From Promethearchaeati archaeon (lineage in GTDB: Archaea; Asgardarchaeota; Atabeyarchaeia; Atabeyarchaeales; Atabeyarchaeaceae): DNA of 64,000 bases. The position numbers were made by a program, and so were the translations under genes. The stretch is from NCBI GenBank assembly GCA_019058495.1, contig JAHPYV010000002.1, positions 3,143-67,142 of the forward strand, written 5' to 3'. The notes beneath the pieces are model-generated. The model made no database searches. It saw only the letters and a list, made by a program, of their open reading frames with translations, and was not told where the DNA came from. Shown one piece after another: positions 1-12,678 of this stretch. Every line of letters starts with the position of its first letter. The stretch's first letter is position 1.

Positions 1-51
1 TTGGTTTCTAAACAACATATATAAATATGGGTTAGGTATTAAACACTTTCG

Positions 52-60
52 CCTATAAAT
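52..60 (+). promoter_or_regulatory. TATA-box-like element upstream of the mrp cluster
   Basis: CCTATAAAT ~43 nt upstream of ATG 103. A second A/T box, ATATATAAAT, lies at 17-26. Confidence 0.35.
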
Positions 61-102
61 GATTGACTAGTCGCGTCTAGCACAGACAAGAGAAGATTAG
101 CT

Positions 103-1074
103 ATGAAGAATGAATGTGACGGCAAATGTGATTCCTGCTCGAAGACTGAGGGATGCAACGATCCGAGAAAGGAGAGGTATGAAAGGGAGCAGCGTCTCAA
201 ACTCAGAATGAGCAGGATTGGGCACAAGATTGCCGTGATAAGCGGCAAAGGAGGAGTTGGTAAAAGCACTGTGACCGTGAATCTCGCTGTGGCTTTCGCA
301 ATGCGGGGTTACGTCAACTCTGTGGGCATTCTTGATGCAGACATTCATGGTCCCTGTGTGCCTGGTATGCTGGGTCTCAAAGGTCAGAGGCTCCTCCCTG
401 ATCCTGAAGGAATGCTCCCTGTGATAGGTCCTCTGGGGATCAAGGTCATGTCTATGGCATTTCTGCTTCCAAATGATGAGGCGCCTGTGATTTGGCGCGG
501 CCCGCTAAAGATGGTAGCCATTGAACAGTTCCTTTCCGACACGGTGTGGGGAGAACTCGAGTTCCTGTTTATAGATCTTCCGCCTGGAACTGGCGACGAA
601 CCATTGAGCATAATGCAGTTAATCGCCAATATGGATGGCGTAGTAATAGTTACAATGCCCAACAAGGTTGCCCAAGATGTAGTGAAGAAGGCTGTGACAT
701 TTGCCCAACAATTGAGCATTCCCATAATTGGAATAATCGAGAACATGAGTGGCTTCATCTGCCCGAAGTGCGGGCATGAAATCAACACCTTCAAAACTGG
801 CGGAGGGCAGGAAATGGCAAGAGACTTCTCGGTTCCTTTCCTAGGGAGGATCCCAATTGACCCCGCGATTTGCCAGGACTCTGACGATGGAACCCCATTC
901 ATAATTAAGCATGCAGACTCGGCAGCGACAAACGCGTTCACAGAAATCACCAAGAGAATTGAGCATTTCTTGGAGAACAGAAAGCGAGTTGAGAGTACGC
1001 AGACAAAAGCATCTCAGGGAATCAAACAGCCTAATCATTCGGAAATATCACAAAGATCAACTGAGATGTGGTGA
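103..1074 (+). CDS. Mrp/NBP35/ApbC-family P-loop ATPase (Fe-S cluster carrier)
   Basis: 323-aa ORF. Deviant Walker A VISGKGGVGKST, conserved CPKC motif (GFICPKCGHE), and an N-terminal CX3CX2CX5C cysteine cluster. Confidence 0.9.
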   Translation: MKNECDGKCDSCSKTEGCNDPRKERYEREQRLKLRMSRIGHKIAVISGKGGVGKSTVTVNLAVAFAMRGYVNSVGILDADIHGPCVPGMLGLKGQRLLPDPEGMLPVIGPLGIKVMSMAFLLPNDEAPVIWRGPLKMVAIEQFLSDTVWGELEFLFIDLPPGTGDEPLSIMQLIANMDGVVIVTMPNKVAQDVVKKAVTFAQQLSIPIIGIIENMSGFICPKCGHEINTFKTGGGQEMARDFSVPFLGRIPIDPAICQDSDDGTPFIIKHADSAATNAFTEITKRIEHFLENRKRVESTQTKASQGIKQPNHSEISQRSTEMW

Positions 1075-1078
1075 TCTA

Positions 1079-1477
1079 ATGAAAATATGTGTGACTGCGG
1101 CATCAGGCATTCTGGAAGCTCAGGTGGACCCGCGGTTTGGTAGATGTCCATACTTTGTGATTGTGGACTCAGAAACAACGCAATTTGAGGCTATTCCAAA
1201 CCTGGCTTCTGGCGCAATGGGCGGTGCGGGAATTCAGGCAGCGCAAACCATCGCGAGTAGAGGCACTAAGGTGCTGATAACTGGAAGCATTGGTCCAAAT
1301 GCCTTCCAAGCGCTATCAGCTGCAGGGGTAAGAATCATGATAGGGGCTAGTGGGACTGTAATAGAGGCCCTTGAGAAATATCGGAAAGGGGAACTAGAGG
1401 AGGCAAGCTCACCGACAGTTCCTGGGCATTTCGGCACAGGTATGGGTAGAGGACGCCGTTGGGGGCAACGACGATGA
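1079..1477 (+). CDS. NifX/NafY/NifB-C-like (dinitrogenase FeMo-cofactor-binding family) small protein
   Basis: ATG at 1079 inside ORF 911..1477, 5 nt after the mrp stop. MKICVTA...PRFGRCPYFVIVD...GSIGPNAF pattern is typical of this family. Confidence 0.8.
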   Translation: MKICVTAASGILEAQVDPRFGRCPYFVIVDSETTQFEAIPNLASGAMGGAGIQAAQTIASRGTKVLITGSIGPNAFQALSAAGVRIMIGASGTVIEALEKYRKGELEEASSPTVPGHFGTGMGRGRRWGQRR

Positions 1478-1950
1478 GACACTCGGAGAGTACAAACGAC
1501 AAAGAGCTTGAAGATATAAAAGGAAAAGAACTTCAGAGAATGCTGGACAAAATCAAGAAGGAAGGAGGTAAGAGATTGGGTGTAAGAATCGTGGTTCCAA
1601 CAGTAGACGAAAGTGGGCTCAACTCTCAGCTGGCCGAGCACTTTGGAAGAGCTCCCTATTTCGCTGTTGTTGACTTGGATGAGAATGGGGAGGTTTCGAG
1701 TGTGAGAACGTCCCCAAATATAGGTGAGCATGCTGGCGGAGTGGGCCAAGCCCATGACAACGTCTTGGAGTTAAAGCCAAATGCAATCATAGTCTATGGG
1801 ATGGGCCCAAGAGGTTTACAGGGATTCCAAGGTAGAGGGGTAGCAGTGTTAAAGGCCAATGCTAATACAGTTAGAGGAGTGATCGCCGCGTACAAGGACG
1901 ATAAACTCCAGGAGCTCACCGAAGGCTGCCATGAGGCGCATCACAAATAG
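1474..1950 (+). CDS. NifX/NafY/NifB-C-like family protein with a charged N-terminal coil
   Basis: ATG 1474 overlaps the upstream stop (ATGA). HFGRAPYFAVVDLDENG...GMGPRGLQGF matches the same family. The ORF track starts at 1459 (TTG). Confidence 0.75.
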   Translation: MRHSESTNDKELEDIKGKELQRMLDKIKKEGGKRLGVRIVVPTVDESGLNSQLAEHFGRAPYFAVVDLDENGEVSSVRTSPNIGEHAGGVGQAHDNVLELKPNAIIVYGMGPRGLQGFQGRGVAVLKANANTVRGVIAAYKDDKLQELTEGCHEAHHK

Positions 1951-2076
1951 GGTGGGTCTCTGGAAAAAGGACAATGCAAGATCGTGGGATGTGGGGTAAT
2001 GTTCGGAGAGTCAGCAACAGATGAACTTGAGTTATTGAAACAGTCAGGTTATTCCGAGGAAGCCATCTAGCAAGAG

Positions 2077-2484
2077 GTGATGGATATAAAAGGGTATGTA
2101 ACCGCTATTGAAAAAGAGACGAGGAAAAACACTGATTTCCGCCGCGTCTTGTATACGGGGAAGTACAGCCAACTTGTGCTCATGAGCATGAAGCCCGGCG
2201 AAGAAATAGGTGAGGAGACCCACGAGGATGTGGATCAATTCTTTCGGTTTGAGGGAGGAGAAGGAAAGGTAATTATTGACGGCGTTGGACATGCTGTCAA
2301 GGACGGACATGCAGTTATCGTCCCTGCGGGCGCCAAGCATAATGTTATCAACACCTCTAAACAATCGGAACTCAAATTGTACACGGTCTACTCGCCGCCC
2401 GAGCACCAAGATAAAATAGTGCGACGTACCAAAGCGGAAGCAATGGCGAATGAAGAGCATTTTAACGGTAAAACTACCGAATGA
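2077..2484 (+). CDS. cupin-domain protein
   Basis: 135-aa ORF. Cupin motifs GEEIGEETHEDVDQFF and AVIVPAGAKHNVIN. Confidence 0.75.
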   Translation: MMDIKGYVTAIEKETRKNTDFRRVLYTGKYSQLVLMSMKPGEEIGEETHEDVDQFFRFEGGEGKVIIDGVGHAVKDGHAVIVPAGAKHNVINTSKQSELKLYTVYSPPEHQDKIVRRTKAEAMANEEHFNGKTTE

Positions 2485-2887
2485 TGAACATGACTTGGCC
2501 TTAATTGATATCAAATCGAACCTAAGTTCTAGGTTGATAAAAGTTAAGTGTGGTGTCTGAGCGAATTCATGAGTCGAATCTCGCGGTTCAGTCGGGCTCT
2601 CTGTCTCCTCTAGGCGTGAAGTTGAACCTGTTCCATAACGAGAGACTATTGGTTTTCCCGAATTGTCCCTGAAACTTGTCGAGCGAGGTAACAATGCAAG
2701 GATATTTGTATCAGTTGCGTCGTATGGCTTGGGCGCCATATTGGATCCAAGATCTGGTAGGTTCTGAAGTTTGTCATCTTGGATTCCGATACAATGCAAC
2801 TTGAGTCGATGCAGAACAGGTTTCAGGTGCCGTTGTTGGTACCACAATTTGAGCCGCCAACAATTCTGATAAAATCAAGTCGCTAAC

Positions 2888-3772
2888 ATGTCAGATTGCA
2901 TGAACGATCTCCGATTACTTTTCGAGGTGTTATTTGTGATTGTGTCTGTTGCCAGTGGAAAAGGAGGAACGGGGAAGACATCGATAGCTGTGAACTTAGC
3001 GATCTCCATAGGAAGCGCTCAACTTCTGGATTGCGACGTAGAAGAGCCGAACGCCCATCTCTTTTTCCATCACGAGACAAATCAAGTGGAGCCGGTTTCA
3101 ATTCTGGTTCCTCGTGTAAATGAACAACTATGCAACCATTGTGGGGAATGCGCAAAAGTCTGCCAGTACAATGCCATCTTTGTCGCGTCAGAGCGAGTTA
3201 TGATTTTTCCTGAGGTCTGCCACAGCTGCGGAGGATGTCTTCTAGTTTGCCCCAAGAAAGCGATCACAGAAGAAAGACATAGGATTGGGGTGATTAAAGT
3301 GATTCGCGAAGGAGACTTGGAACTCGTGTTCGGTGAACTCGAGGTAGGCGAGCCTTTGTCTGTTCCTCTCATAAAGGAAGTCAAAAAGAAGCTCGATGTC
3401 GGCAAGAACGTGATTCTTGACTCTCCGCCTGGAACTTCTTGCCCAATGATTGAGACTGTGAAGGGATGCGATTTCTGCATTCTCGTCACAGAGCCCACAC
3501 CGTTTGGTTTACACGACCTGAATATCGCTGTTCAGGTTCTCGAAGATATGAAGATCCCTGTTGGAGCGATTGTCAACCGCGCAGACATTGGAGACAAGAA
3601 GATTTATGACTTCTGTAGCGAGAAGGGCATACCTATCTTACTTGAGATTCCTTTTCAAAGAAGGATTGCAGAACTCTACTCCAGAGGAATTCCCTTCAGC
3701 CTAGAGATTCCTGAGTGGGGAGAGAGACTAAGGGTGTTATTTGATCAGGTAAGGAGGATTTCTAGTAAATGA
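2888..3772 (+). CDS. MinD/ParA-type P-loop ATPase with 2x[4Fe-4S] ferredoxin insert
   Basis: Walker A ASGKGGTGKTS followed by CNHCGECAKVC and CHSCGGCLLVCP. The real start is probably GTG 2936, preceded by GAGGTG. Confidence 0.85.
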   Translation: MSDCMNDLRLLFEVLFVIVSVASGKGGTGKTSIAVNLAISIGSAQLLDCDVEEPNAHLFFHHETNQVEPVSILVPRVNEQLCNHCGECAKVCQYNAIFVASERVMIFPEVCHSCGGCLLVCPKKAITEERHRIGVIKVIREGDLELVFGELEVGEPLSVPLIKEVKKKLDVGKNVILDSPPGTSCPMIETVKGCDFCILVTEPTPFGLHDLNIAVQVLEDMKIPVGAIVNRADIGDKKIYDFCSEKGIPILLEIPFQRRIAELYSRGIPFSLEIPEWGERLRVLFDQVRRISSK

Positions 3773-4644
3773 AGCAATTGACGGTTCTCAGTGGTAAGGG
3801 TGGCACAGGTAAGACAACAGTAACAGGCTCGTTTGCTGTTTTGGCAGAAAACCCTGTCTTAGCAGATTGTGATGTTGACGCGCCTGATCTTCACATGCTT
3901 TTGCATCCCACGATAATCAAAACATACGAATTCAAGGGATCAAAGCTGGCTGTCATCGATAAGGCGAAGTGTACCGAGTGCGGTTTGTGTAGAGAGAAAT
4001 GTAGGTATGGTGGAATCACAGCGAGGTTTGAGGTTGATCCCCTCTCCTGCGAAGGTTGCGGCGTATGTGCCATCGTCTGCCCAGTGGAAGCGGCGAGTCT
4101 GGTTGAACGAATCTCTGGACACGCGTACGTCTCGAGAACCGAATATGGTTTCATGGTCCACGCCATGCTCAGACCCGGTGAAGCAAATTCGGGAAAACTG
4201 GTGACCTTAGTAAGGCAAAAAGCCGAAGAACTAGCTGAGACGCTGAGCGGCAGTCTCATCATAATTGATGGTCCGCCTGGAATAGGGTGCCCCGCGATTG
4301 CTTCAGTGACTGGAACGGATGCAGGTCTGGTTGTTACTGAGCCAACTATGTCTGGGATCCACGACCTCAAGAGGGCACTGCAACTACTGAAGCAATTCAA
4401 TGTGCAACCGTTTGTCTGCGTGAACATGTATGACATAAATCAATATAACACGGAGATGATCGTGGATTTTTGCGAAGAAAACGGAATAGAAGTTGCTGGA
4501 ATGATTCCCTTCAATCGCATTGTAACAGAAGCCATGGTCAATGGAAAGCCTGTAGTCGAATACGCCCTCAAAAGCGATGTCGCCAAAGAAATACAGAATG
4601 TGTGGAGAAAGCTTCTTTCAGCTTTAAAGCTGGGAAGTGACTGA
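3769..4644 (+). CDS. MinD/ParA-type P-loop ATPase with 2x[4Fe-4S] ferredoxin insert (paralog)
   Basis: LSGKGGTGKTT Walker A, plus CTECGLCREKC and CEGCGVCAIVCP. Overlaps the upstream gene by 4 nt. Confidence 0.85.
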   Translation: MKQLTVLSGKGGTGKTTVTGSFAVLAENPVLADCDVDAPDLHMLLHPTIIKTYEFKGSKLAVIDKAKCTECGLCREKCRYGGITARFEVDPLSCEGCGVCAIVCPVEAASLVERISGHAYVSRTEYGFMVHAMLRPGEANSGKLVTLVRQKAEELAETLSGSLIIIDGPPGIGCPAIASVTGTDAGLVVTEPTMSGIHDLKRALQLLKQFNVQPFVCVNMYDINQYNTEMIVDFCEENGIEVAGMIPFNRIVTEAMVNGKPVVEYALKSDVAKEIQNVWRKLLSALKLGSD

Positions 4645-5635
4645 TCTGCGAGGCTTGGAAATGTCAGCTTTTGGTCCTGTTCCGTCAAGACGCCTTGGAA
4701 GAAGCTTGGGAATAAACAATATTCCAGCCAAGATGTGTCCTTATTCATGTGTTTACTGCCAGTTAGGAAAAACGATGAACATGACTGTTGAAAGGCAAGC
4801 CTTCTATCAGCCAGAAGACATTTTCCGTGAGGTCAAAACAAAAGTTGATGAAGCAACTTCGCGGAATGAAAAAATCGGCTATCTGACGTTCGTCCCGGAT
4901 GGAGAGCCAACCCTAGAAATTAACTTGCGTCAAGAAATAGCTCTTCTAAAACAGATTGGAATTCCAATAGCTGTTTTGACTAATGCCTCGCTTCTCTGGC
5001 GGGAAGACGTGAGAGAAGATCTGTTTGAAGCAGACTTTGCTTCTCTGAAATTGGACGCCGTTACCGAGGATCTATGGAGAAACATTAACAGACCTCACAA
5101 AGATCTGAAGCTAGACAGAGTCTTGGAAGGTGTAGTTGACTTCGCAACAGCATTCAAAGGGACAATTGTCAGCGAGACCATGCTTGTCAGTGGCATAAAC
5201 TATGGAGCTGAATCCGAAAGGATAGCGGGATTTCTGAGACATCTGAAGAAACTTGATAAAGCCTATATTGCGATTCCAACAAGGCCCCCAACAGAGAAGT
5301 GGGTTAAACGCCCCGCGGAGGAAGTAATAAACGCTGCCTTTCAAGCCTTCATTCAAGAGCTCAGCCCAAAGAGAGTCGAGTATTTGATTGGTTACGAAGG
5401 GAACGCCTTCGCCTTCACAGGAAACGTTAGAGAAGACTTGTTAGCCATAACAGCTGTTCATCCCATGCGCAAGGAAGCAGTGAAAGAGTTCTTGAGGAAG
5501 GCAAACGCAGACTGGCAAATCATAGAGAAGCTTTTGCGCGAAAACAAAATCATAGAACTCGATTATGAGGGAAACCTGTACTACATGCGAAAGTTGCCAA
5601 GCAAAACAGGCAATTCTGTTAAACATAGATCCTAG
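4637..5635 (+). CDS. radical SAM protein (function unknown)
   Basis: GPVPSRRLGRSLGIN...CPYSCVYCQLG carries the CX3CX2C radical-SAM motif. Alternative ATG start at 4661. Confidence 0.8.
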   Translation: MTDLRGLEMSAFGPVPSRRLGRSLGINNIPAKMCPYSCVYCQLGKTMNMTVERQAFYQPEDIFREVKTKVDEATSRNEKIGYLTFVPDGEPTLEINLRQEIALLKQIGIPIAVLTNASLLWREDVREDLFEADFASLKLDAVTEDLWRNINRPHKDLKLDRVLEGVVDFATAFKGTIVSETMLVSGINYGAESERIAGFLRHLKKLDKAYIAIPTRPPTEKWVKRPAEEVINAAFQAFIQELSPKRVEYLIGYEGNAFAFTGNVREDLLAITAVHPMRKEAVKEFLRKANADWQIIEKLLRENKIIELDYEGNLYYMRKLPSKTGNSVKHRS

Positions 5636-5677
5636 AACATCAATTCGATAATGATGTGCAGTCTTACCCGAATCTAT

Positions 5678-6943
5678 TCATTGGCGGCTGTCTTTTTCAT
5701 GGTTTTGAGTTGGTGACACCATTCTGTCTAATATACCTTGATTCAGCATATAGACTGCTTCCCTAATCTCAACTGATTTTGGAAGATAATAGATCTGCAC
5801 TGAGCTATCTCTTAACACGTGGAACGGACCTTCTCCTACTCCTCCTGCAAGCAGCACATCAACTTTTTGGTCAAGTATTAAGTGAGAGACGGCTATCCCC
5901 TTCTTTTGCGTCATTCCTGCTGCTTTATTCACTCTTATGTAAACCCTTTCTATTTGTCCCTTTTCAATCACGACAAAGGCGAAATAAGGCGCTTTTCCAA
6001 AATGAAGGGCAGTCATTGATTCTAATCTCTTGTCTTCTAGTACTGGAATGGCAATCTTGATTCTTTCTTTCACTGCAGGTCCCATGTGAATAGTAATTGA
6101 CTCTATGTCTTTCAACTGTTTTCTGATTTTTGTTTCAATCTCCTCCGAAATCATGTGGGCTTTGTTCAAAGGAAGGTCGTCCTGTAATTCGATTTCCATC
6201 TCACCGAAGGAAACGGGCCCAGATTTCCTCAATCTGATATTGTGAACTCCCTTAACTCCGTGCACGCTTTCTGCTATTTCTCTTATTTCCTTTGCTTTTT
6301 GAGGGCTCAGACAAGCGTCCATTAGAACTAGTACAGAGTCTTTTCCGAACCAGAGTCCCACTTTAACTACGTATACCCCGATTGCTAAGCCTACCAGAAC
6401 CTGTGCTACGAAATAGCCATATTGAGATATCAGGACTCCGGCGACAACCAGCAGTGAGGTGTAGACATCAACCAAGGAATGTTGCCCCTCACTAATTAGG
6501 GACTGAGAACCAATCTTGAGTCCAGTCTTTCCTTTGATTCTAGCAAGGACGTAGGAAACTAGCGCAGAGAGGCCGGCGGTTGTCAATGCGAGCACTGGAA
6601 AGGAGACACCCTTAGGTTCAAATAGCTGATCTGTTGACTCTTTTAATATCAATGCACCTGATACTGTGATTATCAGAGAAACTGTCAGAAGAGAGAAAGT
6701 CTCTGCTTTGTAGTAGCCGTACGGAAATTTCTCACTTGGCTTTTTCTGTATGAGTTTCAGGCCTGCCCAGACTGCTATTGAAGAGAAGATGTCTGAAAAG
6801 GAGTGAATAGTATCAGCCAGAAGGGCTATGCTGCCAGAAAGAACAGCCACAATTCCCTTCAATATACTGAGAGCAAGGAGAACAAAGGCGGATAGTCTAG
6901 CCGCTTTTTCTCCTTCCCTAAAGAGCATATTTCCTTTGCTCAC
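5678..6943 (-). CDS. cation diffusion facilitator (CDF) transporter fused to a C-terminal NifX-like domain
   Basis: CDF signatures SIALLADTIHSFSD and HSLVDVYTS, six predicted TM segments and a cytoplasmic domain. The C-terminal ~110 aa (HFGKAPYFAFVVIE...LLAGGVGEGPF) resemble the NifX-like ORFs nearby. Confidence 0.8.
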   Translation of the reverse strand: MSKGNMLFREGEKAARLSAFVLLALSILKGIVAVLSGSIALLADTIHSFSDIFSSIAVWAGLKLIQKKPSEKFPYGYYKAETFSLLTVSLIITVSGALILKESTDQLFEPKGVSFPVLALTTAGLSALVSYVLARIKGKTGLKIGSQSLISEGQHSLVDVYTSLLVVAGVLISQYGYFVAQVLVGLAIGVYVVKVGLWFGKDSVLVLMDACLSPQKAKEIREIAESVHGVKGVHNIRLRKSGPVSFGEMEIELQDDLPLNKAHMISEEIETKIRKQLKDIESITIHMGPAVKERIKIAIPVLEDKRLESMTALHFGKAPYFAFVVIEKGQIERVYIRVNKAAGMTQKKGIAVSHLILDQKVDVLLAGGVGEGPFHVLRDSSVQIYYLPKSVEIREAVYMLNQGILDRMVSPTQNHEKDSRQ

Positions 6944-7436
6944 TATCAGCGCGTCCTTCTTACTCTGAGGTTTATGCTTTTTCTGTCGACTGGGTTTTTC
7001 TGGGCAATCGTTATCTGTTCTTAGCTTCGTTTGTTCTCAGACATTATCACCCTTTTAATCCATTCTTCCCCGATTTCTTGCTTTCAAGGTTGAATTTCGT
7101 TATCATGGTATTATATTTCGGATTTCGAAGAGATTAAGACTCCTAGCGCAGTGGAAGATGCTGCATCGATAGCACGGGAGCGACCAGCGATCACTTTCTC
7201 CCCATAGGCAAGTGCGCCGCTTTAGACGCGTGCGAGGAGCACTCACATGGATAGGGAACTGTTGCTAAGCCCCGAACACCTATCCGACACTTGCGTTCTC
7301 GTGCGAATATTCTCTCCCCGAGATTCTGCCTCACAACTCTGACGGTCTCTTATTTGAAGAGAATGCTGGAAAGAAAATCCATGCAACACAGCTGTGAATG
7401 TTTCCTGTCACACTAGAGAAGTCGATTCGTCGGCAG

Positions 7437-7814
7437 CTACTCGAAGGCAGAACCCTTCGACTTCGACAAAGCTTCTCTTACACAATCTGCAACTTTCTTG
7501 TTGCGTCTAACTGAGATTCTCCCAATGTTGTGATGCTCAAGTAGACCTGAAGCTCCTGGACCGAATTGGGTTGCCATCACCGAGTTTACTTTGAGATCTG
7601 CTAGTGTTTTTGATGCTACTGGTCCAGAACCATAGCGATAGGATGCGGCCGGGTTGTCAACCACTTGTACGTCCTTAACTTCGTCATTCTCGAGATCTAT
7701 TATTGTGAAAGTCTTGGCTTTCCCAAAAACCTCAGAAACAGAATCTTCCAGCCCTCTACGCCCGTTTGTTGCTACAGCAATCCTAGTTTTGCTCACCCTT
7801 CTTTCCACCTCCAA
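7437..7814 (-). CDS. NifX/NafY/NifB-C-like family protein
   Basis: 125-aa ORF. RIAVATNG...VFGKAKTFTIIDLEN...ATQFGPGA pattern. Confidence 0.75.
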   Translation of the reverse strand: MEVERRVSKTRIAVATNGRRGLEDSVSEVFGKAKTFTIIDLENDEVKDVQVVDNPAASYRYGSGPVASKTLADLKVNSVMATQFGPGASGLLEHHNIGRISVRRNKKVADCVREALSKSKGSAFE

Positions 7815-7861
7815 GTTGACTCATGTTATCCAATTTCGTACGTTCAAAAAAGAGTGAGGCT

Positions 7862-8206
7862 TCAGACTTGGCTGGACTCTGACTTTTTCAGTTCATCTAG
7901 TCTCTCCTGCATCTTCTTTAGCGTTTCCTGTATAGCCTTTAGTTGTTCTTCCATGAACGTTTTTTGTTCAGTTAGCAATGTTGTCTCATCTTCAGGCTTC
8001 AATGCAGGCACCACGTCTGGGGGCAACACACCTGCAGGTGGCACGTATGCTCTGTAAGCTCCATAAGGCCTGAACAACCACCAGCATGCGCCTCTGCCAT
8101 AGAGCCAGCCAGGCCTCTGCCAAGGCGGTAGATAGCTGAAGGGACCTCTTCCAGGCCATCGTCCTCCGCCTCTGCCTCTCCAACCATATGCCATGTCCTT
8201 TTTCAC
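7862..8206 (-). CDS. Gly/Arg/Pro-rich N-terminus plus C-terminal coiled coil; DUF5320-like protein
   Basis: 114-aa ORF. GWRGRGGGRWPGRGP...PPWQRPGW, then a coiled coil EEQLKAIQETLKKMQERLDELKK. Divergently paired with the DUF134 gene, as is common for this family. Confidence 0.45.
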   Translation of the reverse strand: MKKDMAYGWRGRGGGRWPGRGPFSYLPPWQRPGWLYGRGACWWLFRPYGAYRAYVPPAGVLPPDVVPALKPEDETTLLTEQKTFMEEQLKAIQETLKKMQERLDELKKSESSQV

Positions 8207-8292
8207 CTCTATAATCTATTTTGTGCTTATGCACACATTCAATTATGGAATAAGACACAAAAATATATAAGCCTTGTGTTGAGAGCTAGTAG

Positions 8293-8631
8293 GTGATTGT
8301 CATGGGATGGCGAAATAGACGCAGGCACGGTAGAAGAGGGCGATTTCCAAAGCCCATCAGCGTAGAGAAGGCTCCAACAACAGACATGTTTACTCCCACT
8401 CCGGAAGGGAATCAGGAAGCGATCTGCATTGAGCCAGCCGAACTGGAAGCTCTCAGACTCGTAGACCTCGAAGGGCTCTCTCAAGAGGAGGCTGGAGAGA
8501 GAATGGGTGTCTCGAGGGGAACAGTATGGAGGTTCCTCCAGAGCGCAAGAAAGAAGACCACACAAGCCCTGACCGAAGGAAGAAGAATACAAATTCTTTC
8601 GGAAGAGGCCGGCCAGAGCAAACAAAATTGA
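8293..8631 (+). CDS. DUF134/UPF0251-family HTH protein (sigma-70 region-4-like)
   Basis: Arg-rich N-terminus, then LEALRLVDLEGLSQEEAGERMGVSRGTVWRFLQSARKK, which is typical of DUF134. Confidence 0.75.
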   Translation: MIVMGWRNRRRHGRRGRFPKPISVEKAPTTDMFTPTPEGNQEAICIEPAELEALRLVDLEGLSQEEAGERMGVSRGTVWRFLQSARKKTTQALTEGRRIQILSEEAGQSKQN

Positions 8632-8714
8632 TGATAAGATACATTCACCTGACATGCCCTCTTTTGCTTTTAGGAACCAAAGATTGATAAACTTCAGTTT
8701 TCCAGTGTCTTGTC

Positions 8715-8954
8715 ATGAAGGCTAGAATAAGGCTCATTATTGGTGCAGTACTACTAGTTGGGTTCGCGTTAGCTTGGGCTCCATGGATTACGGACAATTA
8801 TGCTATCGACAGAGTAGTTGAGGAATTGGGCGGTCCAGAAGCCCGTTTCACCTACCTCGGTGAAGACATGGCTCTAAGAGATGTTCCAAAGGAGGTTCAT
8901 TGGGTACCCTTTGGGAGATTTGTCACATTCCCAGGGGGGCAGGTTGGTTCGTGA
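8715..8954 (+). CDS. small hypothetical protein with N-terminal TM/signal anchor
   Basis: 79-aa ORF with hydrophobic N-terminus LIIGAVLLVGFALAWAPW. No recognisable family. Confidence 0.35.
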   Translation: MKARIRLIIGAVLLVGFALAWAPWITDNYAIDRVVEELGGPEARFTYLGEDMALRDVPKEVHWVPFGRFVTFPGGQVGS

Positions 8955-9752
8955 CATTCTATGGTAGTGTTGCCTAGACGAGCACTATCCGGATTATTCT
9001 GCTCCAGACCCTTAGTGCAACAAACCAAGATCAATCTTCTCTATGAGGATGAGCCCGATGAACATCCCTTCATTGAAGATGGCTTTTCGCGTCTGGCTGA
9101 TTGAGACATTGGTTTCAGGTTCAACTTCTTTATACTCATGAATATGATTTATGAATCGATGTGAGGGTTTCTGGTTGCGCACCAAATCGGAATGACCACC
9201 CAAATTGCGCATATCCTCGTTTTCGCGTATTTCCTGCTCCGATATGTCAAATAGTATGAAACCATAGACCTGATTCATGTTGGGCTTCTATGGTTGGGCT
9301 TGGAACTCTTATTTGAATGGAGAGGAAGTCTTGCTATAGGGCGTCTTGTCGGAGAGATCCTGATAAGCTGGAACGTCTTCGCGGGATATATGTGGCCATA
9401 CGTGCTGCTGACTTATCTGTTATCAAATCTCACTGTCGGCACAATTCTGCACCCAGGCAAATAAGGAGGATGAGTAACTCTCATTCTCTCACAACATGGA
9501 ATCTCAATCGCTACAGCATACTAGTTGATGTTGTAAGAGATGTTACTGAAAAGGGGTGTCTGATGAAACTAACGATCCGATGATGACTCGCCCCAATCTC
9601 AGAACTTTCATGCTTATTATATTCATTTTCGTGTGACAAAAGTTTAAAATAAGTTAAGCTCAAGTGGTCTCTAATTAGAATACTGCTCATCTTGAATAAG
9701 CTAATATTACAGAAGTTATGGTTATAGGTAATCAAAGGAGGCCAATTAACGA

Positions 9753-12101
9753 ATGGCAAATAAACCTGCAAGAATTAAGGCGAACGAAATCCAGTCGAGT
9801 TTTGGAATCATAAAAGGTCTAGATCTCAGCATCGGCAAAATAGTCACTGAAGAAGAAGCCGAATGGGAGCCAATGGGTCCCACCCCCTACCCTGCGGTTG
9901 AAACCTTGCGTTCATGGGATCAGAAATTACTAGCAAGGTACAAACCATTCTACACCCCGATCTGTGACATGTGTTGCCTTTGCACAATGGGCAAATGTGA
10001 CCTGACAGCAGGCAAGAAGGGAGCGTGCGGCATAAACATAGGTACGCAACAGGCTCGAATGTCCCTGATGGCAGGGCTTATGGGTTGTACAGCTCACGTT
10101 GCTCACGCCAGGCACCTAACGGAACATCTTATCAGGAAATATGGTCCGTCCACACCCATTTCACTCGGGGCTGAAATAGATGTCGAAGCTCCCAACATGA
10201 GACTGGTTCTGGGGACAAAGCCAAAGACACTAGAAGACCTTGAGGAAGGATTATCTTACTGCGAGCGCGAAGTAACACAGCTGTTAGCTTCTACTCACAC
10301 TGGACAAGAAGGTAGCAACTTGGACTATGAGTCGAAACTTCTCCATGCAGGCATGCTCGATCATGTTGGCATGGAAATCGCAGACATCGCTCAGATATCA
10401 GCTTATGGTTTTCCGAAGGGTGCCTCCGACGCTCCATTGGTCGACTGCGGCATGGGCACTGTTGATGCATCAAAACCCATGATTCTGTGTATAGGGCACA
10501 ACGTTGCTTCAGGCGTCGAGATAGCAGATTACCTGCATGCAAATAAGTTAGATGAGAAGGTTGAAGTCGGCGCCATTTGTTGCACGGCAATCGATCTTAC
10601 AAGATACTATACTGGAGCGAAAGTTGTGGGTCCCCTCTCTCAACAATTGAGATTCGTAAGATCGGGCGTTGCAGACGTAGTAATGACTGATGAGCAATGT
10701 GTGAGAACTGATATCCCTGAGGAAGCGCAGGTTGTCAGGGCGCCCGTTATCGCCACTAATGCAAAGATATGTTATGGATTCCCAGATCGTACAAGCGATC
10801 CAGCTGATCAGATAGTGAAAGATGTGGTATCAGGGGCGCAAAATGGTGTGCTTATACTCGATCCGTACAAAGCTGCTGAAGTAGCTGTCAAGGTCGCTGT
10901 CAGCATCGCACCCGCGAGAGCCAAGTTCAAGGCTCTGCCTGATGCAAGCAAGATTGTAGAGATTGCCAAGGGTTGCACAGGTTGTCAGAGTTGTCGAAGA
11001 GCATGTCCAAACGATCTGCACACAGACGAGGCTGTCCAACTAGCCAAGAAAGGAGATCTTTCTAAGCTAGCTGATCTGTATGAGTTCTGCATTGCGTGTG
11101 GAAAGTGTGAGCAAGCTTGCAACAAGGGCATACCGGTGACAAGCTTGATAACGGTTGCCGCTGAACGAAAGGTCAAACAGGAGCGATTCAAGATGCGAAG
11201 CGGGCGAGGTCCGGTACGGGACACAGAGATTCGTAATGTTGGCGGACCAATTGTATTAGGTGAAATACCCGGCATAGTCTTGTTCGCTGGTTGCTCCAAT
11301 TACCCTAACCACTTGGACGTCGGCGAGATGGCGGCAGAGTTCTTAAAAAGAGGCTTCATAGTAACAGCTACAGGTTGCTCGGCTATGGACATATCGAGAT
11401 ACAAGACAGAAGATGGAAAGTCGCTCTATGAGGAGTATCCGGGTGATTTCGACAGAGGTTGCTTGTCGAATATTGGCTCGTGCGTGTCTAATGCACACGT
11501 CACTGGCGCGGCCATCAAGGTTGCAAGCATCTTTGCAAGGAGACCACTAAGAGGGAATTATGAGGAGCTAGCTGATTACGTCTTGAATCGTGTAGCGGCA
11601 GTTGGAATCGTTTGGGGAACTTATAGTCAGAAAGCCGTATCGATTGGGACAGGAGCCAACAGACTTGGTGTTCCAGTAATCCTAGGTCCCCAAGGTAGCA
11701 AATATAGACGTATGATGGTCGGACGTGCCGATAAGGATGAGGACTGGTATATCTACGATGCTAGAACAGGCGACCGAACATATGTAGGACCAGTTCCTGA
11801 ACACTTGGTGTACGCTGCTGAATCCAAAGAGGAAGCTATGATCATGGGAGTGAAACTCTGTCTAAGAGCAAACGACACATCCAAGGGACGAAGTGTCAAG
11901 CTGTCTCACTACATCGACCTAACCAGGAAACTGCTCGGCAAAGAGTATCCAGACGACATTCACAAATTCATTCGCATGGAGTCAGATGTCCCACTAGTGT
12001 ACAAGGAAGACTTAATGAAGATGCTACAGAGCAAAGGGTGGAAACCAACAACAATACCTGACCCAACTCTCCTGAAAAGACTTGTAAGGACAAGCGGATG
12101 A
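9753..12101 (+). CDS. cdhA: CODH/ACS complex alpha subunit (Ni-CO dehydrogenase catalytic subunit, archaeal type)
   Basis: 782 aa. N-terminal Cys clusters (CDMCCLCTMGKCDL), ferredoxin insert CTGCQSCRRACP / CIACGKCEQAC. SD AAGGAGG lies 12 nt upstream. Followed by cdhB. Confidence 0.93.
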   Translation: MANKPARIKANEIQSSFGIIKGLDLSIGKIVTEEEAEWEPMGPTPYPAVETLRSWDQKLLARYKPFYTPICDMCCLCTMGKCDLTAGKKGACGINIGTQQARMSLMAGLMGCTAHVAHARHLTEHLIRKYGPSTPISLGAEIDVEAPNMRLVLGTKPKTLEDLEEGLSYCEREVTQLLASTHTGQEGSNLDYESKLLHAGMLDHVGMEIADIAQISAYGFPKGASDAPLVDCGMGTVDASKPMILCIGHNVASGVEIADYLHANKLDEKVEVGAICCTAIDLTRYYTGAKVVGPLSQQLRFVRSGVADVVMTDEQCVRTDIPEEAQVVRAPVIATNAKICYGFPDRTSDPADQIVKDVVSGAQNGVLILDPYKAAEVAVKVAVSIAPARAKFKALPDASKIVEIAKGCTGCQSCRRACPNDLHTDEAVQLAKKGDLSKLADLYEFCIACGKCEQACNKGIPVTSLITVAAERKVKQERFKMRSGRGPVRDTEIRNVGGPIVLGEIPGIVLFAGCSNYPNHLDVGEMAAEFLKRGFIVTATGCSAMDISRYKTEDGKSLYEEYPGDFDRGCLSNIGSCVSNAHVTGAAIKVASIFARRPLRGNYEELADYVLNRVAAVGIVWGTYSQKAVSIGTGANRLGVPVILGPQGSKYRRMMVGRADKDEDWYIYDARTGDRTYVGPVPEHLVYAAESKEEAMIMGVKLCLRANDTSKGRSVKLSHYIDLTRKLLGKEYPDDIHKFIRMESDVPLVYKEDLMKMLQSKGWKPTTIPDPTLLKRLVRTSG

Positions 12102-12144
12102 TTAGCGTTTGGTGAGGTGTAAAATAAAATTGTCTACTCGAACA

Positions 12145-12678
12145 ATGCCTTGGCAAACTGCAAACGTTCCAGGTCCGAAATTCGCCATGGATCTTAAGGG
12201 CGAAGTAGCAGGGAAAATGATCCAGAAGGCAAAGCGACCACTCTTAATCGTAGGGATTAACTCTGCGAAGGATGAGGTCAAGGGACGGAAACTTATAGAT
12301 TATGCCATCGAAATGGGAAAGGCAGGGGTCAAAATAGTAGCTACAGCCCACATGGTGAAAGAGTTCTCTAACCGTGGTTACAAAGTCGATGCAGACATGC
12401 CTGTAGTTAACATAACCGACAGACTGAAAGACCCAGAATGGAAGGGCATTGATGGACGCGGTGCTCACGACGTTGCAGTCTTCTTAGGCGTCCCGTACTA
12501 CTTTGAATCTCAGATGCTTTCGACGTTGAAAAACTTTGCACCCGATCTTAACACAATAGCCATCGATGCACAGTTTCAACCAAATGCTAAGTGGTCATTT
12601 CCAAATCTGAAGGAGAAAGACTACGAAGCAGAGCTGACCAGTATGATGACAGCCCTTAAAGAGAAGAAGTCTGCTTAG
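12145..12678 (+). CDS. cdhB: CODH/ACS complex epsilon subunit
   Basis: MPWQTANVPGPK...QKAKRPLLIVG is typical of CdhB, and the gene sits directly after cdhA. The ORF track begins at TTG 12109. Confidence 0.85.
   Translation: MPWQTANVPGPKFAMDLKGEVAGKMIQKAKRPLLIVGINSAKDEVKGRKLIDYAIEMGKAGVKIVATAHMVKEFSNRGYKVDADMPVVNITDRLKDPEWKGIDGRGAHDVAVFLGVPYYFESQMLSTLKNFAPDLNTIAIDAQFQPNAKWSFPNLKEKDYEAELTSMMTALKEKKSA

Follow-up and report, generated by a model that had tools for sequence, protein, structure and literature searches.

An Asgard archaeal gene island that probably belongs with the ORP and IssA iron-sulfur systems

The 64,000-nt stretch of Asgard archaeal DNA analysed here (the window; contig C239:3143-67142 of a 2.88-Mb genome that is 94% complete) carries near its start an island of eleven genes, which combines an Mrp-type carrier of iron-sulfur (Fe-S) clusters, a pair of MinD-type ATPases with ferredoxin inserts, four NifX-like (PF02579) domains and several accessory genes. 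Sequence comparisons indicate that the core of this island is the published orange-protein (ORP) cluster of Desulfovibrio, with its MrpORP protein split into separate genes. We regard it as rather probable that the island as a whole is an Asgard, extended, split-gene module of the ORP/IssA type, which buffers and delivers iron-sulfur or, more broadly, metal-sulfide material. This reading draws on homology, gene linkage and the biochemistry of relatives, from which we infer the steps of the mechanism. Three rival explanations were weighed, and all of them were ranked below it.

The eleven genes and the four NifX-like domains had been listed in an initial annotation made from the sequence alone. 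Open reading frame (ORF) listing and family scans located every one of the genes, and each of the four domains was matched by PF02579 in the Pfam scans. The features are, in order:

4-45, no strand: divergent promoter of the Lrp/AsnC-Cys regulator and mrp, with two repeat boxes around an AT-rich TATA-like stretch
103-1074, plus strand: Mrp/NBP35-type Fe-S carrier ATPase (PF10609, 1e-95)
1079-1477, plus strand: NifX-like carrier 1, NifX1 (PF02579, 89.7 bits)
1474-1950, plus strand: NifX-like carrier 2, NifX2 (PF02579, 57.8 bits)
2077-2484, plus strand: small cupin (Cupin_2, 55 bits)
2888-3772, plus strand: MinD-type P-loop ATPase A with an inserted 2x[4Fe-4S] ferredoxin domain, Orp3/Orp4-like (CbiA/ParA and Fer4)
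3769-4644, plus strand: MinD-type P-loop ATPase B with an inserted 2x[4Fe-4S] ferredoxin domain, Orp3/Orp4-like (CbiA/ParA and Fer4)
4637-5635, plus strand: radical SAM protein (Radical_SAM, PF04055)
5678-6943, minus strand: CDF-NifX fusion in a 421-aa frame (Cation_efflux, ZT_dimer and PF02579, the last at 57.2 bits)
7437-7814, minus strand: NifX-like carrier 4, NifX4 (PF02579, 50.1 bits)
7862-8206, minus strand: DUF5320 protein (PF17253, 29.9 bits, above the Pfam gathering cut-off of 27)
8222-8235, no strand: candidate DUF134 operator, a perfect palindrome in the divergent DUF5320/DUF134 promoter
8293-8631, plus strand: DUF134 (UPF0251), a small helix-turn-helix protein (PF02001, 75.4 bits, above the gathering cut-off of 27)

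The likely true starts of the DUF5320 and DUF134 genes are ATG 8194 (MAYGWRG...) and ATG 8302 (MGWRN...), respectively. The island extends past the upstream edge of the window, where an Lrp/AsnC-type regulator is encoded on the minus strand at C239:2559-3128.

Kinship with the orange-protein complex and with IssA

In Desulfovibrio vulgaris, MrpORP is the Orp9 member of the orange-protein complex, and its partners are Orp3, Orp4, Orp5 and Orp8. Orp3 and Orp4 are ATPases with two CX2CX2CX3C [4Fe-4S] motifs each, and Orp8 is a PF02579 protein whose homologues carry a Mo-Cu-S cluster; MrpORP, which binds a 3Fe-4S cluster in its Di-Nase domain, transfers Fe-S to Orp3-Orp4-Orp8 in vitro (PMC6345978). 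MrpORP (NF041136) was also the top NCBIfam match of the island's Mrp protein. The match scored 347.6 bits, below the 450-bit cut-off of the model, and covered model positions 1-264 of 365; the protein is not a fusion of Mrp with Di-Nase. The C-terminal (Di-Nase) third of the same NCBIfam model was matched by NifX1, NifX2, NifX4 and the CDF-NifX fusion. Judged by these matches, the Mrp gene corresponds to the P-loop half of MrpORP, with the Di-Nase part carried by adjacent separate genes, and hence a split equivalent of Orp9. The Mrp protein has a GKGGVGKS motif, a CXXC pair (C220-x2-C223) and an N-terminal group of cysteines (C5/C9/C12/C18), and its nearest solved structures are the archaeal Mrp proteins 3kb1 and 2ph1. 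The N-terminal cysteines form a CX3CX2CX5C motif (residues 5-18, window 115-156), and the spacing of the last three is what we take to be that of the N-terminal cluster motif of eukaryotic Nbp35. Such a motif in an Asgard archaeon might be informative about how the cytosolic Fe-S assembly pathway arose.

NifX1 is a single-domain PF02579 protein of the orange-protein (Orp8) type. Among solved structures, its closest relative is 2wfb, the orange protein of D. gigas (1e-21, residues 2-112), followed by MTH1175, which is the structure that was used in modelling IssA (PMC5524996). The stop codon of NifX1 overlaps the start of NifX2 in an ATGA, and NifX2 is kept at the same position in a genome of the same genus.

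The two ATPases both carry GKGGTGKT and, as a MinD-type pair with two [4Fe-4S] motifs in each protein, correspond to Orp3 and Orp4. The deviant Walker A motif GKGGxGK and the eight ferredoxin cysteines were invariant in the 16 ATPase sequences that we aligned, and so was one further cysteine, in PPGxxC (16/16 sequences; window 3397-3414 and 4273-4290). ATPase B is 63% identical to its homologue in the Bathyarchaeia genome CP170178.1, and no solved structure spans the whole of it. The ATPase alignment also led to a Desulfobacteraceae locus in which a fused Mrp+NifX gene adjoins the same ATPase pair. As a side observation, the cysteine of PPGxxC stands directly after a switch-II-like PPG and might help to ligate a cluster that bridges the dimer, as one does in NifH or Mrp.

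Both ATPases are members of the MinD/ParA family, and a spatial or division role was the first suggestion made for the ORP complex; in D. vulgaris MrpORP sits at a cell pole, and loss of orp expression leads to morphological defects (PMC6345978, PMC8359166). By analogy, the island could be a positioning or cell-division system, in which the MinD-like ATPases serve as spatial organisers and possibly place Fe-S or iron-sulfide bodies. However, the invariant 2x[4Fe-4S] inserts and the extra invariant cysteine point to redox or cluster chemistry, the constant partners of the ATPases are cluster carriers and not division proteins, and a separate ParA/MinD-like gene is found elsewhere in the genome. 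We therefore consider a positioning system quite improbable.

The second line of kinship leads to IssA, the iron-sulfur store of Pyrococcus furiosus, which is a member of the PF02579 family. IssA stores thioferrate and rebuilds ferredoxin clusters, and it consists of a PF02579 domain and a 70-residue tail (pI 10.7, with 11 Pro, 7 cationic, 14 aromatic and 15 Gly residues) that was proposed to hold the anionic thioferrate (PMC5524996). The DUF5320 protein of the island has a cationic N-terminal half rich in Gly, Arg, Trp, Tyr and Pro, and an acidic coiled-coil C-terminal half. The composition of its N-terminal 56 residues (pI 10.7, 11 Gly, 10 Arg/Lys, 14 aromatic, 7 Pro) agrees with that published for the tail of IssA. 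Some other Asgard genomes encode both PF02579 and PF17253 in one protein, with PF17253 at the C-terminal end, and proteins of this build make up a very large family. When one of these Asgard fusion proteins was used as query, more than 110 of the best 120 homologue clusters had both PF17253 and PF02579, the named ones coming from Baldrarchaeia, Methanocellales, Bathyarchaeota, Altiarchaeales and Aminicenantes. The tails of the fusions start with GMGRG-type repeats, continue with a Pro-rich stretch and end in a coiled coil. NifX1 is collinear with the PF02579+DUF5320 fusions up to the start of the tail, and it ends after the Gly/Arg tail GMGRGRRWGQRR. These comparisons suggest that DUF5320 is the Pfam name for the tail module of long-tailed IssA-like proteins, which is encoded separately here.

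We also compared the NifX-like proteins with the published criteria for IssA (pI of at least 9, fewer than 5 Cys, and a Gly share of at least 20% over the last 40 residues; PMC5524996, Supplementary Fig. 7) and with the looser ones for 'IssX' (pI of at least 8, fewer than 10 Cys and at least 10% Gly; PMC5524996). NifX1 (pI 9.50, 2 Cys, a Gly share of 18%) and NifX4 (pI 9.37, 1 Cys, 10% Gly) fall within the 'IssX' range, and NifX2, with a pI of 6.38, and the NifX domain of the CDF fusion, with 2% Gly, fall outside it. In place of the long cationic tail that IssA has on the same polypeptide, NifX1 has about 20 tail residues, and the tail-like segment lies on the separate DUF5320 protein. Residues 1-35 of NifX2 (window 1474-1580; KELEDIKGKELQRMLDKIKKEG) resemble the C-terminal coiled coil of DUF5320 tails, and this coiled-coil-like N-terminus, for which Pfam reported no DUF5320 match, begins at the ATGA in which the gene overlaps NifX1 and its truncated Gly/Arg tail. 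By their sequences, NifX1 and NifX2 look as if a NifX-DUF5320 fusion had undergone a rearrangement onto the next gene.

Conservation of the module and the question of its clients

The conservation of the module was followed in 48 loci from more than 15 phyla, which comprise seven Asgard islands from different families and another 41 in which the ATPase was clearly matched (tblastn E <=5e-36), retrieved by a scan of one genome per species. The latter come from Bathyarchaeia, Thermoplasmatota, Methanomethylicota, Micrarchaeota, Dehalococcoidia, Clostridia, Bacteroidota, Aminicenantes, Desulfobacterota, Spirochaetes and others. Many of the contigs are short, and the following counts are lower bounds. 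Both ATPase paralogues were present in tandem in all 48 loci, at least one NifX-like gene was found in the fetched flank of 47 of them, and at least two in 35. Less constant were Mrp (22/48), DUF134 (21/48), the radical SAM gene (13/48), DUF5320 (at least 8/48) and CDF (3/48), and the cupin was found in none (0/48). The seven Asgard islands have the arrangement NifX-NifX-ATPaseA-ATPaseB, accompanied in shuffled order by DUF134, DUF5320, Mrp, the radical SAM gene and CDF-NifX fusions. Beyond the genus, the closest match is the cluster of the complete Bathyarchaeia genome CP170178.1, which has the gene order of the window, LrpCys-Mrp-NifX-NifX-ATPaseA-ATPaseB.

Similar linkage was seen in 41 Asgard genomes, where PF02579 scored above its cut-off in 31, DUF134 in 24 and DUF5320 in 12, and where about 24 of the 30 DUF134 matches lay at most 5 kb from a PF02579 gene. 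The ATPase genes were present in 23 of these genomes, as a tandem pair wherever the assembly permits. PF02579 was found in 22 of the 23, and it adjoins the ATPase genes whenever they are on one contig. The initial annotation had taken the genes for one linked module that handles metal clusters, and their co-conservation across the 48 loci, far beyond chance and with no lack of it at the phylum level or beyond, bears this out.

Two relatives of the host, a complete same-genus genome (G001) and a same-family genome (G002), provided a presence/absence contrast. G001 aligns with window 1-1946 (mrp, NifX1 and NifX2) and 9629-12200 (cdhA), and the two alignments are 570 bp apart; the 7.7 kb in between (window 1947-9628, cupin to DUF134) are absent from the locus (G001:C1:868525-869097). 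The alignment with G002 at the DNA level includes cdhA and a displaced cupin alone. No match to the MinD-ferredoxin ATPase, DUF134 or DUF5320 was found anywhere in G001 or G002. The NifX1 orthologue of G001 contains an in-frame TGA and a 1-nt gap and is a pseudogene, and G002 keeps one PF02579 gene, while NifX1 was not found there. Both genomes retain the cdh operon, at 82-88% DNA identity. These patterns suggest that the module eroded in the relatives, and they hint at an old exchange between Bathyarchaeia and this Asgard family. A recent foreign origin of the 7.7-kb block was considered and rejected, as its GC content is the same as that of the surroundings and the broken NifX1 in G001 favours loss over gain.

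The contrast bears directly on the clients of the module. The initial annotation had named the enzymes encoded nearby, carbon monoxide dehydrogenase/acetyl-CoA synthase (CODH/ACS), Mvh and Hdr, as possible clients, and cdhA indeed starts 1.1 kb downstream of the island. Since the relatives keep the cdh operon without the 7.7-kb block, CODH/ACS, Mvh and Hdr get by there without it. In addition, cdh genes were found near the module in the same-genus genome only and in none of the 48 other loci. The proposal that these enzymes are the clients is therefore not supported, and CODH/ACS was rejected as a candidate.

The nitrogenase background was examined in the whole genome. PF02579 matches were confined to the four domains of the island, PF00148 (NifD/K/E/N) had zero matches, the top match of TIGR01290 (NifB) reached 22.8 bits, and the top match of PF00142 (NifH), at 51 bits, is a ParA/MinD-like protein. 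The NifX equivalog TIGR02663 matched NifX4 alone, at 17.4 bits compared with a cut-off of 112. The genome has no nitrogenase genes, and the module is therefore nitrogenase-independent. The initial annotation had said so from the absence of these genes in the window; the absence of NifH, NifDK/EN and NifB now extends over the 94%-complete genome, which leaves no nitrogenase elsewhere in it to account for the island.

The radical SAM (S-adenosylmethionine) protein might still have supplied a synthesis step of the NifB kind. It has three cysteines in total, all within CPYSCVYC (CX3CX2C), which corresponds to a single [4Fe-4S]/SAM site. The protein is auto-annotated as COG0731 and is 72-75% identical to Bathyarchaeia sequences named 'radical SAM protein'; a search of the PDB found no related sequence, and TIGR01290 gave no match. 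Its AlphaFold model (pLDDT 87.8) gave generic Foldseek matches, to PFL activase (TM 0.55), TYW1 (0.51), NifB (0.50) and viperin (0.49). The JGI label 'wyosine synthetase' was rejected, the TYW1 equivalog scoring 23 bits against a cut-off of 318. The C-terminus (residues 264-318, window 5426-5590) is modelled as a helix-helix-helix-strand-strand domain that looks winged-helix-like. The radical SAM protein is a recurrent optional partner of the module and is not NifB-like. A NifB-like step for the synthesis of a complex cluster is unlikely, because the protein has the cysteines of the SAM cluster alone and no specific resemblance to NifB.

These results also decide how we view the explanation put forward in the initial annotation, a dedicated assembly line for a complex heterometal cofactor (Nif/FeMo-co-like) that serves the adjacent CODH/ACS, Mvh and Hdr. 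The PF02579 fold binds FeMo-co or NifB-co in NifX, NafY and NifB (PMC5524996), the island has a radical SAM gene and NifH-like P-loop ATPases, and cdhA is close by. Against these stand the rarity of cdh next to the module, the persistence of cdh in G001 and G002, which lack most of the module, the radical SAM protein without ligands for auxiliary clusters, and the presence of its gene in just 13 of the 48 loci. We judge such an assembly line very unlikely.

Accessory genes and regulation

The CDF-NifX fusion is a member of the CDF superfamily by TIGR01297 (230.5 bits, cut-off 82.35), and it matched PF01545 with 146 bits. With CDFs of the Fe/Zn type (FieF/YiiP, MamB/MamM) it shares a complete CDF core, a cytoplasmic dimerisation domain and H-x3-D motifs on two transmembrane helices. 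MamB, MamM and FieF were also its top equivalogs, but unlike these proteins it scored far below all their cut-offs. Ten PF02579 matches within open frames of 406-461 aa were found in nine other Asgard genomes, and phmmer confirmed that three of those loci carry the CDF-NifX fusion.

The fusion raises the question of whether the module serves in homeostasis or detoxification of another metal sulfide (Mo, W or Cu thiometallates, or Zn), with the NifX-like proteins sequestering the metal and the CDF exporting it. A CDF exporter fused to a NifX-like domain, recurring in Asgard genomes, would fit such a role, as would 2wfb, the nearest solved relative of NifX1, which carries a non-covalent [S2MoS2CuS2MoS2] cluster (PMC6345978). 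Yet the CDF gene is present in just three of the 48 loci, the island has no genes for a Mo/W transporter or for pterin, the relatives that have been studied biochemically, ORP aside, bind Fe-S species (PMC6345978, PMC5524996), and the CDF groups with Fe/Zn-type pumps by its top NCBIfam matches. Detoxification of another metal sulfide thus seems to us unlikely.

The cupin may be a duplicate. A second copy with 83% amino-acid identity lies at C282:697-1095, and in both relatives the cupin homologue is far from the locus. The cupin is a local passenger and not a conserved member of the module, because none of the 48 related loci carries it. The spacer between the NifX4 and CDF-NifX genes (6944-7436, 490 bp) is unusually long for such a compact island. 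Both of its strands are free of ORFs of 60 aa or more, it has no Rfam match, and an Rfam scan of window 1-10000 with E up to 0.1 reported no RNA families. The spacer may hold the promoter of the CDF gene or an unrecognised small gene or RNA.

DUF134 is the presumed regulator of the module by its sequence, which, apart from PF02001, also has sigma-70 region-4-like helix-turn-helix matches and matches NCBIfam PRK04217 (96 bits). Its divergent promoter contains the palindrome TGTGCTTATGCACA (8222-8235), about 30 nt upstream of the probable DUF5320 start, and an AT-rich TATA-like element (8262-8272) lies between the palindrome and DUF134. The exact pattern TGTGC-N4-GCACA occurs at this single site in the 64-kb window, and a search of the island's intergenic DNA that allowed up to two mismatches found no other. 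Of the seven other Asgard islands, five have exact sites with A/T-rich spacers. For three islands the DUF5320 start codon is readable, and there the site is 18-30 nt upstream of it; an 18-nt stretch around the palindrome is identical in an Asgard genome of another family. Genome-wide, six exact palindromes were observed and about 2.3 are expected by composition; an all-A/T spacer is found solely at 8222-8235. The palindrome at 8222-8235 is the obvious candidate, and likely the operator, for DUF134. Since the site is palindromic, it may instead form a small hairpin in the 5′ untranslated region. A wider DUF134 regulon was considered and rejected on the genome-wide count and on the lack of additional sites in the intergenic DNA of the island. 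Outside the island one exact palindrome was inspected (C57:9687-9700, spacer AGTT). It is located directly after a TATA-like TTTATAAG and 9 nt before an unannotated ORF of 89 aa, and may mark a further target of DUF134 or have arisen by chance.

At the other end of the island, the Lrp/AsnC-type regulator is encoded divergently from mrp and has a C-terminal CX3CX2CX7CX2C motif. The Lrp-mrp pairing is kept in the same-genus genome (391 bits) and in the Bathyarchaeia genome (280 bits). In the spacer at 4-45 two GTTT(AG)-N-(C/T)TAAAC-like boxes flank the AT-rich TATA-like stretch, and the Lrp/mrp spacers of the other two genomes contain repeats of the GTTTAG-N3-CTAAAC type; a TGTGC-N4-GCACA site was not found in the mrp-side spacer. 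As the boxes are shared with the Bathyarchaeia cluster, they suggest that the Lrp-Cys protein controls the mrp operon through GTTTAG-N3-CTAAAC-like boxes, and it may be a regulator of this operon that senses Fe-S or metal. The arrangement of the ORP cluster, with two divergent operons controlled by sigma-54 and the Fe-S redox sensor OrpR, was not found, as no enhancer-binding protein is encoded in the island. To our knowledge, archaea have no sigma-54.

Proposed mechanism and comparison with known systems

If the island is an ORP/IssA-type module for buffering and delivery, its parts would cooperate as follows. The Mrp/NBP35 ATPase would assemble or carry a bridging [4Fe-4S] cluster and load the ferredoxin inserts of the two MinD-type ATPases, as its Desulfovibrio homologues do in vitro. 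ATPases A and B would form an ATP-dependent heterodimer of the deviant-Walker-A kind (MinD/NifH/Get3), whose nucleotide-driven closure, probably along with low-potential electron transfer, would be coupled to the loading or unloading of the NifX-like carriers; we propose this loader role because the ATPases are invariably paired and because of their motifs. The NifX-like proteins would hold labile clusters non-covalently. In support of the scheme, two PF02579 proteins of Methanococcus voltae rise on pyrite (PMC8516115). DUF5320, because of its composition and the family of fusions, would give in trans the cationic Gly/Arg/aromatic tail that IssA-like proteins have in cis, and would hold anionic iron-sulfide. 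At the membrane, the CDF-NifX fusion might vent or gate surplus Fe(II)/Zn(II), and the radical SAM protein would be a frequent accessory. DUF134 would control the DUF5320 side through its palindrome, and the mrp operon is probably regulated by the Lrp-Cys protein encoded upstream.

A more specific version of this scheme is a two-part IssA system, in which the NifX-like carriers and the free DUF5320 tail nucleate thioferrate-like particles, the MinD-ferredoxin heterodimer acts as an ATP- and electron-driven loader or unloader, the CDF-NifX fusion provides the coupling to the membrane, and DUF134 is the repressor at TGTGC-N4-GCACA. We put it forward tentatively and hold it to be rather doubtful in its entirety. 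If true, it would amount to an anaerobe-wide counterpart of ferritin with active mobilisation, found here in an Asgard archaeon.

Several points weigh against an ORP/IssA-type role in buffering and delivery. The reading transfers to the island functions that were established for relatives of its proteins and for none of the proteins themselves. The 48 loci were picked by ATPase similarity and are not independent samples. NifX1 narrowly misses the definition of IssA, by 18% instead of at least 20% Gly. The same-genus genome lives without most of the module, which that lineage can therefore dispense with. In D. gigas the orange protein carries a Mo-Cu-S cluster and not Fe-S (PMC6345978), so that the cargo could be another metal sulfide. 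Finally, the cellular role of ORP was still termed unclear in 2021 (PMC8359166). The view in the initial annotation that the function of this neighbourhood is not established is thus right as to the cellular role, but its core is a published cluster and its PF02579 family includes IssA.

The storage and distribution of iron and sulfide in strict anaerobes are poorly understood. We know of no job that has been assigned to the ORP complex since 2011. DUF5320 as a detachable tail of IssA-like proteins would tie the ORP and IssA literatures together, the comparison of congeneric Asgard genomes sets the module apart from the maturation of CODH/ACS, and the palindrome gives a precise candidate operator for the uncharacterised regulator DUF134.

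Among known systems, that of nitrogenase maturation (NifX/NafY/NifB-C) shares with the island the PF02579 fold and its neighbourhood to NifH-superfamily P-loop ATPases and a radical SAM gene, but here the genome lacks nifHDK, nifEN and nifB, and the radical SAM protein lacks the auxiliary-cluster ligands of NifB. With IssA and its short-tailed 'IssX' relatives it has in common the PF02579/IPR003731 domain, few cysteines, a basic pI and, in NifX1, a Gly/Arg tail. Unlike in IssA, the long tail is on a separate polypeptide, and thioferrate binding is here a putative feature; a MinD-ferredoxin or Mrp context such as that of this island is not described in the IssA paper (PMC5524996). The ORP system of D. 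vulgaris Hildenborough likewise has a paralogous pair of MinD-type ATPases, PF02579 carriers and Mrp in one cluster, and is found in anaerobes only (PMC6345978, PMC8359166, PMC3897727). In the Asgard archaeon, in contrast, the Mrp and NifX-like genes are separate, DUF134 (with its TGTGC-N4-GCACA site) and the Lrp-Cys regulator replace the control by sigma-54 and OrpR, and DUF5320, the CDF-NifX fusion, the radical SAM gene and the cupin are additional. The module is known in kind from ORP and IssA, and the Asgard version is a split-gene, extended variant of it.

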